The notes below the pieces were generated by a model. It did no database searches. It had not been told where the DNA came from and saw only the letters and a program-made list of their open reading frames with translations. Made by a program: the position numbers and the translations under genes. This document shows, piece by piece, positions 12,650-16,098 of a DNA stretch of 34,315 nucleotides. Every line of letters begins with the position of its first letter. The stretch's first letter is position 1. Source of the stretch: Candidatus Bathyarchaeia archaeon (GTDB lineage Archaea; Thermoproteota; Bathyarchaeia; Bathyarchaeales; Bathycorpusculaceae); the NCBI GenBank assembly GCA_038882655.1, contig JAVZNT010000011.1, positions 1 through 34,315 of the forward strand. The letters are read 5' to 3'.

Positions 12650-13858
12650 ATGGGCGAAGAACAAACGGTTGTTGTATTTATAAACCAAGATTACTGTAGT
12701 CGCTGTTCCATATGTTATTCTATATGCCCCTATGAAGCCATTAAACGAGATGCTGAAACTGGCAAGGTGGAGATAGACCTCCAGAAGTGCCAAGTGTGCG
12801 GGATATGCTACAGTGCATGTCCAGTTTTCGCCATAGAAATTGTCTACTACGATTATGAAAGTTTGGTAGACTATGTGGAAAGCGAGCGGAAAAGAACTGG
12901 AACTGAAACGCTTGTGCTCATGTGCCGTGGGAACTCGCCTTCAACAAGGGAAGTTGAGGAGATTTTGACTGAGCAGGGTTTAAGCATAAAGGAGTACATC
13001 CCACTTCGTTTGCCATGTTCCGGGCGAGTTCCAACAGAATTCATATTCAAGGTTTTGGGTTCTGGCATTAGAAATGTTGTTTCAATTCAATGTGAGGATT
13101 TGTTCTGTCGCTTCAAAGAAGGCACAAAAATCAACACGAGGCGGCTTTTCCTTGGAAGAAGGGTTCTTGAAGAGCTGGGCTTCAGCAAAGACGCTGTCAG
13201 AGTTGTTAAATATTCTCGGAAAGCTGTTTATGATACTGCAAAGTGTGTTGGCTGCGACAAATGTGTCTTTATATGTCCATACGCCGCTATAGAAGCGGAG
13301 CCTTTCACCACGCCAAAAATCCTAAGCGACTATTGTATGGGCTGTGGCGCATGTGCTTTAGTCTGTCCACATCATGCAATTCAGGTTAAGGGCTTTGAGT
13401 TTGAGAATGTCTTGAGGCGTTATGGTGATTCAGCGATTAGGCTGAAGGCTGAGGGCAAATCACCCCTAATTCTTGTCTTTAGTTGTCAGTGGTCTGAGTT
13501 TTCCGCCCTTGATAATCCGGAGGGCGTTCTCTTCAAGCGGAATGTTGTTATGCTTGAGGTTCCATGCTTCAAAGCTCTTGATCCAGTTCACGTTGTCAAT
13601 GCGCTGGAAAATGGCTTTGACGGGGTTATGGCTGTTGTGTGTTCCGCTGAGGATTGCAAGCTTCAAGAGGGGCGCGACACAGCTGAGAGAAACATGACTG
13701 TGCTTAAGGATGTTTTAAAGAAGATGGGCCTAATTGAGCGTTTTGAGCTTTATGAGGCGTCTCCAAGGGATGCTGGGAAATTTGAGGAGAGACTTGAAGA
13801 TTTTGTGAGGATGATTGCGGCTTTACCGCCAATAAAACCTTTGAAAATGGAGGCTTAG
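12650..13858 (+). CDS. Polyferredoxin-like protein with tandem (2x[4Fe-4S] ferredoxin + MvhD/FlpD domain) x2
   Basis: Four CxxCxxCxxxCP motifs in two pairs, each pair followed by an MvhD-like domain (LMC..LPCSGRV..QCEDLFC; FSCQW..VPC..GFDGV..VCSAEDC). Start ATG 12650 (MGEEQ) preferred over 12581. Confidence 0.85.
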   Translation: MGEEQTVVVFINQDYCSRCSICYSICPYEAIKRDAETGKVEIDLQKCQVCGICYSACPVFAIEIVYYDYESLVDYVESERKRTGTETLVLMCRGNSPSTREVEEILTEQGLSIKEYIPLRLPCSGRVPTEFIFKVLGSGIRNVVSIQCEDLFCRFKEGTKINTRRLFLGRRVLEELGFSKDAVRVVKYSRKAVYDTAKCVGCDKCVFICPYAAIEAEPFTTPKILSDYCMGCGACALVCPHHAIQVKGFEFENVLRRYGDSAIRLKAEGKSPLILVFSCQWSEFSALDNPEGVLFKRNVVMLEVPCFKALDPVHVVNALENGFDGVMAVVCSAEDCKLQEGRDTAERNMTVLKDVLKKMGLIERFELYEASPRDAGKFEERLEDFVRMIAALPPIKPLKMEA

Positions 13859-13862
13859 CCCT

Positions 13863-14699
13863 ATGTATGAGATTTTAATGGTTGAAGAGCTTGCCCCAAA
13901 AATAAAGTTATTTGAGGTTTATGCTCCTGAAATAGCCGAGAAAGCCAAACCCGGACAGTTCATCATAGTCGTTATAAATGAGAAGGGCGAGCGGGTGCCT
14001 CTAACAATTGCTGGCTACGATGTGAAGAAGGGTTCAATAACTTTTGTTTTCAATGAGGTTGGTAAGACGACGAAGCAGCTTGGCTTGTTGAAGAAGGGTG
14101 ACAGCATATGGAACATTACTGGTCCGCTTGGGAATCCTTCGGAGATTAAAAATTTTGGCAAGGTCTTGTGTGTAGCTGGAGGCGTTATGATTGCGCCCAT
14201 GCTTTTGCAAGTTAAAGCCTTACGAGAGGCTGGAAACACTGTTATAACGGTTATAGGCGCCCGCATTAAGGAACTGCTTTTCTTTAAGGATGAAATGAAA
14301 GCTTTGAGTCATATGCTTTATGTGGCGACGGACGACGGTTCCGAAGGCTATAGGGGGTTGGATTTTCTGGTGGATGTTTTGGCTTCTGAGAAGTTTGATA
14401 GGTGTGTGGCTATGGGTCCTGTTCCAATGCTTCAAAAAGCCTGCGAATTAACAAAGCCTTACAATATTCCGACGGTCGTTACGCTTATGCCCATCATGGT
14501 GGATGGCATGGGCATGTGTGGCGTCTGCCGCGTAAGCGTTGGCGGGCAGATGAAGTTTGGTTGTGTTGATGGTCCGGAGTTTGATGGGCATCTTGTGGAT
14601 TTTGACCAGTTGATTAAGCGTCAGCGCATGTTCCTTCCGGAGGAGCGTTTAAGCGCCTTGTTGTGGGAGCTTGGAGGGTGCGAGTGTGGCGGAAAGTAA
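13863..14699 (+). CDS. nfnA: NfnA/SudB: NADH-dependent ferredoxin:NADP+ oxidoreductase small subunit
   Basis: [34 protein letters not shown] and the [2Fe-2S] motif [13 protein letters not shown]...[10 protein letters not shown]. Confidence 0.92.
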
Positions 14700-16098
14700 G
14701 CCCCAGCCTAAGGTTAAGAAAAAGGGTGTTCCAATTCCTAAGCAGCCGCCAGAAGTGCGGAAACACAACTTTAACGAGGTTGCTTTAGGCTACACTGAAG
14801 AGCAAGCCCTTGAAGAGGCAAACCGATGTCTCCAGTGTCCCCAACCTCAATGTGTTAAGGGCTGTCCAGTTGAAATTGACATTCCAGCCTTTATCAAGTT
14901 GCTTAGAGAGGGCAAATACGAAGAGGGCATAAAGAAGATTAAGGAGAAGAACAGCCTCCCAGCTATCTGTGGGCGGGTTTGCCCCCAGGAGGAACAATGC
15001 CAAAAATACTGTGTTCTCGGTAAGGTTGGCGACCCAGTTAGTATTGGCAGGCTTGAAAGGTTTTTGGCAGATTGGGAGAGAGCGAGGGGTTTCACGATTC
15101 CTGAGAGGGCTCCGCCCACCGGCAAAAGAGTTGCCATAATAGGTGCTGGTCCTGCTGGTTTGACGGCAGCTGCAGACCTCGCAAAGCTTGGGCATGAAGT
15201 GGTTATTTTTGAGGCTTTGCATCTTCCGGGCGGCGTGTTGGTTTATGGTATTCCGGAGTTTCGTCTGCCAAAAAGCATAGTGCAGGCTGAAGTGGATTAT
15301 ATCAGGAAGCTTGGCGTTGAGCTTAAGCTTGGTTATCTTATTGGCAGAACCTACACCGTTCCAGAACTGGTGAAGGAGAGGGGTTTTGACGCGGTTTTCA
15401 TTGGAACTGGTGCTGGTTTGCCCCAGTTTTTGGGTGTGCCTGGCGAGAACCTAGGCGGGATTTATTCGGCTAACGAGTTTCTGATTAGGGTTAACTTGAT
15501 GAAGGCTTATGCCTTTCCAGAATACGACACGCCAATAAGGATTGGCAAGCATGTGGTCGTCATTGGCGGTGGAAATGTTGCTATGGACTCTGCTCGTTCA
15601 GCGCTTCGCCTCGGCGCAGAGCAAGTGTGCATAGTCTATCGTCGCTCCAGAGAGGAGATGCCAGCCCGCAAAGAAGAAATTGAAAACGCCGAGGAGGAGG
15701 GGATTATCTGCAAGTTTTTGGCGACACCAACCCGGTTTATCGGCGACGAGAAGGGCTGGGTTAAGCAGATGGAATGCATACAGATGGAGCTTGGACCACC
15801 AGACGAGTCTGGGAGGCGCAGACCGGTGCAAGTTAAAGGCTCAGAATTCCTAATGGATATTGACACTGCCATTATTGCTATTGGGCGAACTCCAAACCCG
15901 ATAATTCAGCGTACAACAGATGGCTTAGCCGTCACAAAGTGGGGTACCATTGTGGCTGATGAGAACGGCAAAACAAGCCTTGAAGGCGTCTACGCCGGCG
16001 GCGACATAGTCACTGGCGAAGCAACCGTTATAAGCGCCATGGGAGCCGGAAAAAGGGCTGCAAGGGCTATCCATGAATACTTAATGGGCAAGAAGTAA
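14686..16098 (+). CDS. nfnB: NfnB/SudA: NADH-dependent ferredoxin:NADP+ oxidoreductase large subunit (GltD-like)
   Basis: [68 protein letters not shown] 14686 follows GGAGGGTG and overlaps the nfnA end. Confidence 0.93.

Follow-up and report, generated by a model that had tools for sequence, protein, structure and literature searches.

A doubled ferredoxin-MvhD protein encoded with nfnAB in Bathyarchaeia is a candidate third subunit of Nfn

Gene content of the locus

We analysed a stretch of 34,315 nucleotides (nt) from a Candidatus Bathyarchaeia archaeon (contig JAVZNT010000011.1, positions 1 to 34,315 of the forward strand), which is referred to below as the window; the source assembly, GCA_038882655.1, comprises 1.02 Mb and is 84% complete. 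The subject of this study is a gene at 12650..13858 (+ strand) for a 402-residue protein, P0001, which consists of two successive ferredoxin-MvhD units and which we call the wire, together with the two genes that follow it, nfnA (13863..14699, +) and nfnB (open reading frame (ORF) 14671..16098, +), which encode the small and the large subunit of the flavoenzyme Nfn. The gene order at the locus is HdrA-1 on the minus strand followed, all on the plus strand, by an HdrD-like protein, a mini-ORF of 46 residues, thioredoxin reductase (TrxR), the wire, nfnA and nfnB. The stop codon of the wire gene ends at 13858 and the ATG of nfnA lies at 13863, which leaves 4 nt between the two genes, the spacing already given in a first-pass annotation of this DNA. 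The nfnA gene overlaps the nfnB ORF, and the true start of nfnB may lie a few codons after the listed one. We propose, with a probability of roughly 0.55, that the three genes form one Nfn unit in which P0001 is the third subunit, with electron transfer as its sole function, and that P0001 wires this unit to a hydrogenase or to an HdrA module.

The longest ORF over the wire gene begins at 12581. Because the relatives of P0001 begin at the position of 12650, and because a GGAG motif is found 10 nt upstream of that position, 12650 is the likely start of the gene.

Domains and cluster ligands of the wire protein

The domain content of P0001 was determined from Pfam, NCBIfam and alignments. Two ferredoxin domains, Fd1 (residues ~9-65) and Fd2 (~191-248), alternate with two MvhD-like domains, MvhD1 (~85-185) and MvhD2 (~270-395), and the cysteine ligands specify four [4Fe-4S] and two [2Fe-2S] cluster sites. 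On the whole protein, Pfam matched FlpD/MvhD in two stretches with 131.7 bits and Fer4 in four stretches. When the two MvhD domains were scored alone in a search of the genome with PF02662 (cut-off 22.3), MvhD2 reached 91.3 bits at 13469-13825, and MvhD1 reached 45.7 bits at 12995-13237, over model positions 28-108 only. The best NCBIfam match was the HdrA2 model (positions 572-773), and the best sequence matches among solved chains were the polyferredoxins MvhB and FwdF. The two halves of P0001 can be aligned to one another, and each aligns over its whole length with the C-termini of HdrA-1 and HdrA-2, the two HdrA proteins of the window. The description of the protein in the first-pass annotation as two copies of the unit at the C-terminus of HdrA is borne out by these alignments and by Pfam, and the strings quoted there, INQDYCSRCSIC..., VNQDYCGNCQFC..., KAVYDTAKCVGC and KAFVITDLCNGC, are all present.

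Each ferredoxin domain contains two CxxCxxCxxxCP motifs, and their cysteines (C16/19/22/26 and C47/50/53/57 in Fd1; C199/202/205/209 and C229/232/235/239 in Fd2) are invariant in 17 full-length representatives of the family. The four aligned cysteines of an MvhD domain are presumably the ligands of its [2Fe-2S] cluster. In MvhD2, residues C279, C306, C331 and C336 align with cysteines of the solved chains 5odc_D and 7bkb_F. In MvhD1, C123, C148 and C153 align with cysteines of solved MvhD, and the fourth, C92, falls outside this alignment and is invariant in the 17 representatives. Thus, both MvhD-like domains keep four cysteines, as had been claimed, with C92 assigned from its invariance in the family rather than from a solved chain.

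Identity of the nfnA and nfnB products

Nfn serves as the textbook example of a minimal flavin-based bifurcating enzyme and is regarded as a transhydrogenase of two subunits that stands alone. On the basis of homology and motifs, nfnA encodes the small subunit, with FAD, an NAD(H)-type domain and a [2Fe-2S] cluster, and the nfnB ORF encodes the large subunit, with two [4Fe-4S] clusters, the bifurcating FAD and the NADPH site. NfnA of the window scored 293.9 bits against NfnI-S of Pyrococcus furiosus (5jca_S) and 260.3 bits against the Thermotoga maritima chain 4ylf_A. NfnB scored 612.1 bits against T. maritima 4ylf_B, 588.3 bits against P. furiosus NfnI-L (5jca_L) and 648.7 bits against TIGR01316 (cut-off 471.75). 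The cofactor motifs were checked in the translations as they are listed in PMC6405883. NfnB has both cluster motifs, RCx2Cx4Cx3CPV and GRVCPQExQCx3C, and NfnA has ERxPxT (as ERVPLT) and the [2Fe-2S] motif DGxGMCGxCR-x10-CV, including its Asp ligand; the threonine of DGTGMCG in that source is a methionine in NfnA of the window. Judged by these scores and motifs, NfnAB of the window is a genuine Nfn and a close relative of the T. maritima and P. furiosus enzymes.

Gene order among relatives in Bathyarchaeia

Species-representative genomes were scanned with P0001, which yielded 159 relatives, and 80 loci at 66-92% identity were kept. Neighbours in these loci were called by tblastn with the window proteins, and a locus was counted as having room when there was enough contig on the side in question. 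The nfnA gene follows the wire gene in 78 of the 80 loci (74 of the 75 with room); the two misses are L075, at a contig end, and L050, in which nfnA is short or partial and nfnB is there. The nfnB gene follows in 71 loci, including all 63 with room, and trxR lies upstream of the wire in 78 (75 of the 77 with room). Among the 63 loci having at least 5.9 kb of upstream sequence, HdrD is found upstream in 38 and HdrA-1 in only 35. These neighbour counts across the 80 loci therefore identify wire-nfnA-nfnB as a stable core, usually accompanied by trxR, with the Hdr pair as a frequent but not fixed neighbour.

Two of the loci, L026 and L074, are labelled Nitrosopumilales archaeon and Sulfotelmatobacter, yet they encode proteins 83% and 67% identical in the same gene order; the labels are likely due to mis-binned contigs. 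Two wire orthologues contain an in-frame stop (one stop in L063:6001-7206 and one TAA in G004:C2:271902-273068), which could be a sequencing error or the mark of a pseudogene.

The presence of trxR in 78 of 80 loci, and of the mini-protein gene in 26 of 80, would also fit an arrangement in which the wire is a ferredoxin-type donor to TrxR, acting with the four-cysteine mini-protein, and nfnAB is merely a co-regulated neighbour. The flavin core of HdrA, which is TrxR-like, is fed through an Fd-MvhD unit according to PMC12054007 and 10.1101/2021.09.25.461819. We nevertheless consider such a role very improbable, since several observations argue against it. TrxR of the window (11609..12544, +; TIGR01292, 353.1 bits, cut-off 343.45) passes the equivalog model for NADPH-dependent TrxR, and its translation contains a CxxC motif (CGIC) and the motifs GGGNSA and HRRDAFRA, which we take to be its NADPH site. 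It is separated from the wire gene by ~105 nt with a TATA-like AT-rich stretch, and wire-nfnAB occurs without TrxR in L026, L047, L195 and L197. TrxR looks like an NADPH-dependent enzyme, and it is probably a co-located consumer of NADPH and not a subunit of Nfn.

Across a sample drawn evenly from the class, a P0001 match at E <= 1e-30 was obtained in 37 of 151 genomes, and these matches were concentrated in the window's own family, with 15 of 20. In 5 of the 37 matching genomes, the match covered the C-terminal Fd-MvhD unit only, in long ORFs of ~700-820 residues. A second sample comprised 60 nfnA loci, of which 19 have an Fd-MvhD gene directly upstream, namely 17 doubled wires and 2 HdrA::Fd-MvhD fusions.

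Some relatives place the wire beside a possible distal partner. In locus L195 (genome G006), six co-directional genes with small gaps or overlaps are arranged as mvhG-mvhA-hycI-wire-nfnA-nfnB, and no Hdr gene was found in this 9.9-kb stretch. The order in L125, L126 and L129 is mvhG-mvhA-hycI-wire-nfnA', with nfnB not directly after; here the hydrogenase genes were checked in L125 only. In genomes G071 and G120 (L147, L148 and L196), an HdrA::Fd-MvhD fusion lies directly before nfnA with a gap of 14 nt, and the unit in L196 has TrxR-like and glutamate dehydrogenase genes beside it. The hydrogenase and Hdr partners suggested in the first-pass annotation thus have genomic precedent in L195 and in the HdrA fusions. 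Because of these arrangements, and of a further one in Dehalococcoidia (L087, below), hydrogenase and HdrA are both real candidates for the distal partner on the evidence of gene context.

In the window itself, the neighbouring candidate is HdrA-1 (7788..10166, -), which has a C-terminal Fd-MvhD unit (FlpD 73.6 bits; NF040770 HdrA2 855.7 bits, under the cut-off of the model). It is divergent from the gene of the HdrD-like protein (10262..11371, +; fused HdrC and HdrB with two CCG domains; Pfam CCG 99.7 bits, Fer4_17), and both lie just upstream of the wire. The MvhD domain of HdrA-1, described earlier as dead, lacks all four cluster cysteines in the alignment. These observations, the counts of 35 and 38 of 63 loci given above, and the HdrA::Fd-MvhD fusion before nfnAB in two genomes are in favour of another explanation, in which the wire links NfnAB to HdrA-1/HdrD and replaces the cysteine-less MvhD of HdrA-1. 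NADPH oxidised by Nfn would then feed a second bifurcation in HdrA-1, and the product would be an NADPH-dependent heterodisulfide-type reductase that also reduces ferredoxin, with its two bifurcating modules placed in series as in FlxABCD-HdrABC or BamGHI-F-ED. Precedents are the GltD/NfnB domain inserted in HdrA (PMC12054007; 10.1101/2021.09.25.461819) and BamF, an MvhD adaptor that joins two bifurcating modules (10.64898/2026.04.10.717634). However, the linkage to HdrA-1/HdrD is lost in ~40% of the loci while wire-nfnAB stays together, and L195 and L197 have the wire and nfnAB without Hdr nearby, and we regard this explanation as rather unlikely.

The wider family of the wire

An exhaustive profile-free search gave 49 representatives (50% clusters) at E <= 1e-30. 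In the 17 full-length representatives, which extend down to 31% identity, all 16 [4Fe-4S] cysteines and all 8 MvhD cysteines are invariant. Because all 24 cysteines are kept down to 31% identity, the alignment indicates that the doubled six-cluster architecture is old and under selection.

The partners of the family members vary. In the Dehalococcoidia clade, 51 loci around P0126 were analysed, 47 of them non-Bathyarchaeia, and nfnAB was nearby in 1 of these 47 (L087). The next gene in Dehalococcoidia encodes a MetV-like DUF5981 protein, identified by Pfam in L087, L109 and L113; ORFs of the same size stand in the MetV position in L105, L115 and L124, where they were matched by size and position only. 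Locus L087 has the order mvhD-fd-nfnA-nfnB-mvhD-mvhG, a split version of the wire-Nfn-hydrogenase parts. In L098, FdhA and an FrhB-like gene lie upstream of the wire and HdrA-HdrD-MvhD downstream, and a metagenome-assembled genome of Methanobacteriota (L134) has wire-metV-metF. Because the partners include Mvh, MetV or MetVF, an HdrA fusion and Nfn, the wire family appears from its gene contexts to be a modular adaptor with Nfn as one of several partners, and the linkage to Nfn is specific to one clade. The synteny with nfnAB in other genomes, which the first-pass annotation had named as a check, is therefore conserved within the Bathyarchaeia clade (78 of 80 loci for nfnA, 63 of 63 for nfnB) and not across the family (1 of 47).

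Many loci of Dehalococcoidia (L093, L095, L096, L099, L102, L117, L121, L131 and others) have a stand-alone MvhD gene directly upstream, which puts three MvhD domains in a row. In L113, the upstream stand-alone MvhD was confirmed by Pfam, and a fusion of response-regulator, GltD-like and ferredoxin parts is found farther upstream.

Predicted complex of the wire with NfnA and NfnB

A three-chain prediction was carried out with NfnA 1-268, NfnB 16-475 and, as the scored partner, P0001 1-262 (Fd1-MvhD1-Fd2); the alignment of each chain consisted of 61-62 orthologues from the same loci. The scores were 0.64, 0.00 and 0.70 (median 0.64), and the best of three controls scored 0.00. The pLDDT (predicted local distance difference test) value of the partner was at least 63, and the runs agreed in at least 0% of contacts. 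The calibration mark is reached by 116 of 157 solved complexes and by 2 of 215 mismatched pairs, counts that are only rough for this prediction because it used our own alignments and three chains. Memory of a solved structure is unlikely to explain the pass, because no similar complex has been solved. The model thus supports, but does not show, binding of P0001 to the NfnAB heterodimer.

The confident part of the predicted interface places Fd2 on NfnA. It involves P0001 residues 196-241, chiefly the loop 216-221, and NfnA residues 12-13, 64-67, 106-107, 132-135, 155-158, 165-166, 186-189, 192 and 251-265; NfnB takes part with one residue (361) only. No contact was predicted at the ferredoxin site of NfnB, and Fd2 was placed on the NAD(H)-binding domain of NfnA. 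The multimer prediction that had been suggested earlier with NfnB thus gave an interface with the Nfn heterodimer, located on NfnA and not at the ferredoxin site of NfnB. From a reading of the fold, the interface residues of NfnA would belong to the nucleotide-binding domain and the C-terminal helix, and by analogy with the family fold the contacted face may be where NADH reaches the FAD of the small subunit; NADH is described as binding at a-FAD on NfnA in PMC6405883. The model thus suggests an entry of the wire into NfnA at, or close to, its NAD(H) site.

Within the contact loop of P0001, residues A216, E217, F219, T221 and P222 vary little or not at all among 61 orthologues that are linked to Nfn, and the loop is variable across the wider family. 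Because the loop is kept where the wire is linked to Nfn and varies elsewhere, this pattern fits a partner-specific surface. The earlier proposal of a third subunit that docks Nfn to another enzyme is favoured in part, by the conserved nfnAB partner and by the predicted binding (0.64 versus 0.00), and it does not extend to the family as a whole, in which the Nfn linkage is restricted to one clade.

P0001 might instead be a soluble, dedicated carrier resembling a polyferredoxin, co-expressed with Nfn and shuttling between Nfn and several MvhD-accepting enzymes. The variety of partners beside the family (MetVF, Fdh/FrhB-like, Mvh and Nfn), the prediction run that gave no interface, and the polyferredoxins MvhB and FwdF as best matches among solved chains are what such a carrier would lead one to expect. 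On the other hand, two of the three runs gave a confident interface while all controls scored 0.00, and solved MvhD chains are subunits of Mvh/Fdh-Hdr complexes. BamF is likewise a fixed adaptor according to 10.64898/2026.04.10.717634. In addition, the 4-nt gap and the conserved gene order suggest translational coupling and a fixed stoichiometry. We consider a soluble carrier to be unlikely.

Residue 109 of NfnA

Position 109 of NfnA, which lies in the sequence AGGVMIAP, is Met in the window and Gly in the two solved NAD-using enzymes, T. maritima Nfn and P. furiosus NfnI (GGGVG[IV]A). A survey of this position was made in the 60 nfnA loci of the class sample; the genomes are related, so the counts do not amount to a statistical test. 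In the 19 loci with an Fd-MvhD gene directly upstream, the residue is Met in 13, Phe in 3, Trp in 3 and Gly in 0. In the 41 loci without such a gene, it is Gly in 29, Ala in 3, Met in 6 and Phe in 3. The nine exceptions with a bulky residue form a group, and a glutamate dehydrogenase gene lies upstream in the two of them that were checked. Because of these exceptions, a bulky residue at position 109 does not need the wire. The proposition that the NAD site of NfnA is destroyed only together with the wire was rejected, as Met or Phe also occupies this position in 9 of the 41 loci in which no Fd-MvhD gene lies directly upstream.

Proposed mechanism and its weighing

In the mechanism that we propose for a three-subunit Nfn, P0001 would act as a six-cluster cable in the order Fd1-MvhD1-Fd2-MvhD2. 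Its Fd2 end would dock on NfnA beside the flavin of the small subunit, and its MvhD end would present a docking surface for an electron-input (or output) module, like the one that serves MvhD proteins for input modules. Ferredoxin would enter at the clusters of NfnB, and the complex would make NADPH from NADP+. Electrons carried by the wire would be supplied by H2 through Mvh or be exchanged with an HdrA module. Their point of entry would be on the NfnA side, at or close to the place at which NADH is used in canonical Nfn, and the reaction could run in reverse. Since NADPH consumers adjoin the unit (TrxR here, and TrxR-like and glutamate dehydrogenase in L196), the physiological direction is likely to be NADPH formation. 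The distal partner would most likely be an Mvh-type [NiFe] hydrogenase, the genes of which are operonic with wire-nfnA-nfnB in a relative (L195); an HdrA module is the alternative.

A stronger form of this mechanism is that the iron-sulfur wire has taken over the NAD(H) site of NfnA, so that the enzyme is no longer a transhydrogenase and H2 (via Mvh) or an HdrA module replaces NADH in a hard-wired three-substrate machine. We put this forward tentatively, as possible but doubtful, and treat a loss of NAD(H) use in wire-linked Nfn as a hypothesis. If such a take-over has occurred, the complex would be an H2- and ferredoxin-dependent NADP+ reductase or, in reverse, an NADPH-driven bifurcating [NiFe] hydrogenase. 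The Hdr-linked form would place two flavin bifurcation sites in series.

Several points weigh against our proposal. Relatives of the wire pair with MetV or MetVF, so the family is not specific to Nfn. The prediction returned 0.00 in one of its three runs, and it covered P0001 without MvhD2. Because the model was without cofactors, the placement of Fd2 in the empty NAD pocket could be an artefact. A bulky residue at NfnA position 109 accompanies the upstream Fd-MvhD gene in 19 of 19 loci and is also found in 9 of 41 without it. The genome has two Mvh-type [NiFe] hydrogenases, counted by their large subunits; both belong to Hdr clusters in which they have an MvhD or an MvhD domain of their own, and no hydrogenase dedicated to Nfn was found in the 84%-complete assembly. 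Finally, co-occurrence with hydrogenase was considered as a test of the distal partner and rejected, because large subunits of NiFe hydrogenases are present in 134 of the 151 sampled Bathyarchaeia genomes and hence do not discriminate.

If correct, a wire-linked Nfn would be a new means by which uncultured archaea of sediments and hot springs make NADPH with H2. It would also help to explain what the numerous copies of MvhD and Hdr do in non-methanogenic archaea, and MvhD-type adaptors would be general plugs for flavoenzymes such as Nfn and MetVF, beyond Hdr.

Comparison with known systems

Both MvhD domains of P0001 match FlpD above the cut-off, as expected of the MvhD/VhuD adaptor of MvhAGD-HdrABC and FdhAB-MvhD-HdrABC (5ODC, 7BKB, 8RVU, 9SW2), and the expected role is the same, namely to connect, as a small iron-sulfur unit, a flavoprotein with the module that feeds in electrons. 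Unlike in MvhD/VhuD, the MvhD domain is doubled, each copy is fused to a ferredoxin with two [4Fe-4S] clusters, and the gene lies beside nfnAB and not hdrABC. MvhD2 has one cysteine (FSCQW) where solved MvhD chains have CCNWC, so it is without the extra cysteine that is discussed for disulfide chemistry in 10.64898/2026.04.10.717634. Each half of P0001 resembles the Fd-MvhD unit of fused HdrA C-termini (the 'type Ia' HdrA of PMC12054007 and HdrA2 of Methanosarcina), but P0001 has no HdrA flavin core and consists of two tandem units that stand alone.

NfnA and NfnB of the window carry all the cofactor motifs of NfnAB/NfnSL (T. maritima 4YLF/4YRY; P. furiosus NfnI 5JCA). According to PMC6405883, the characterised Nfn enzymes are built as heterodimers and work with free ferredoxin and NAD(H); in contrast, the window has a third iron-sulfur gene coupled to nfnAB and a Met at NfnA position 109. 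The idea of another partner that replaces NAD(H) has a counterpart in P. furiosus NfnII/Xfn (5VJ7), an NfnSL paralogue with an altered small-subunit NAD domain. According to section 8 of PMC6405883, this enzyme lacks NAD+-dependent activity and may use another high-potential acceptor; no extra subunit is mentioned there. The NAD domain of NfnII is much more divergent, with 187.5 bits to NfnA of the window. The title of a 2025 paper reportedly calls NfnII NAD+-dependent, and its standing as an NAD-free precedent is therefore disputed.

FlxABC is the input module of FlxABCD-HdrABC, and FlxD is its adaptor. A likeness in arrangement is seen in BamF of class II benzoyl-CoA reductase (BamBCDEFGHI), an MvhD-type adaptor that connects a module handling NAD(P)H and ferredoxin to an HdrA-type module, according to 10.64898/2026.04.10.717634. 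P0001 differs from BamF and FlxD in that their input modules are the HydBC-like BamGHI and FlxABC and the adaptors themselves are single MvhD domains. In HdrA with an inserted GltD/NfnB domain (HdrA9-11 of ANME-1; 'type III HdrA', one class of which is that of Bathyarchaeota), Hdr/MvhD is likewise joined to an NfnB-like NAD(P)H flavoprotein. There, the insertion is covalent, within HdrA's ferredoxin domain, and is without NfnA and without a separate wire. The 'NfnABC' of the literature was considered as a precedent and rejected, since this name refers to an unrelated Bfu-type enzyme. A full-text literature search, supplements aside, found no MvhD-type third subunit of NfnAB or NfnSL and no Mvh-wire-Nfn operon; the nearest ideas in print are the GltD/NfnB insertion in HdrA, BamF and NfnII/Xfn. 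The three-gene arrangement wire-nfnA-nfnB is real and conserved, and as a variant of a well-known enzyme it is apparently unpublished.

Neighbouring genes and other regions of the genome

The mini-ORF between hdrD and trxR (11407..11547, +; from the ORF listing) encodes a 46-residue protein with two CxxC pairs and an acidic tail and is preceded by GAGG. In the 26 of 80 loci mentioned above, tblastn found it in the same position, in some with two copies. The mini-protein may be a partner of TrxR of zinc-ribbon or rubredoxin-like type, and its membership in the wire-nfnAB unit is uncertain. Directly downstream of hdrA-1, at 7291-7719 (-), is a gene for a 142-residue protein without a Pfam match, which is conserved in roughly twelve of the 80 loci (73-93% identity).

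A second cluster of the window, at 24616-30890, has the order mvhG-mvhA-hdrA-2::mvhD-hdrC-hdrB, with mvhG at 24616..25572 (+; Pfam Oxidored_q6) and mvhA at 25569..27026 (+; Pfam NiFeSe_Hases). This hydrogenase, one of the two Mvh-type enzymes of the genome, is a candidate distal partner of the wire. The listed hdrA-2 ORF (26899-29478, +) begins inside mvhA, and alignments to the family models begin no earlier than residue 60-61; the likely true start is close to 27080. An ORF of 134 residues at 29115-29519, which overlaps the 3' end of hdrA-2 and has no Pfam match, is unlikely to be a gene.

The genome as a whole has seven FlpD matches. The first-pass count of four MvhD-like domains and no stand-alone mvhD is right for the window and does not hold for the genome, in which contig C22 encodes a stand-alone MvhD of 146 residues and an MvhD-containing protein of 248 residues; another HdrA::MvhD is encoded on contig C2. 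A GltD/NfnB-like gene at 33640-34314 (+) is cut by the end of the window and seems to extend into contig C22 (L081, 1-9000). The order on C22 is GltD with a C-terminal ferredoxin, the 248-residue MvhD-like protein, a double HdrA of 1010 residues, MvhD, HdrC, HdrB, MvhG and MvhA, and this cluster, a second one that combines NfnB-like, MvhD, Hdr and hydrogenase parts, probably continues the 3' end of the window. On contig C2 (12000-26000; L082), the gene of a 480-residue GltD-like flavoprotein lies directly before an HdrA::MvhD of 801 residues, followed by pyruvate:ferredoxin oxidoreductase genes; within this small genome, it makes a third case of an NfnB-like protein paired with an MvhD domain.

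An RNA check of 11400-16200 in four runs returned short contigs from libraries marked 'probably DNA' and 22 raw RNA reads, which fit in part and continue into unlike sequence. Elsewhere in the window, an AMP-forming acetyl-CoA synthetase gene (19479-21524, -) stands back to back with a gene at 21808-24492 (+) for an 894-residue protein in which an ADP-forming acyl-CoA synthetase is fused to a GNAT acetyltransferase.

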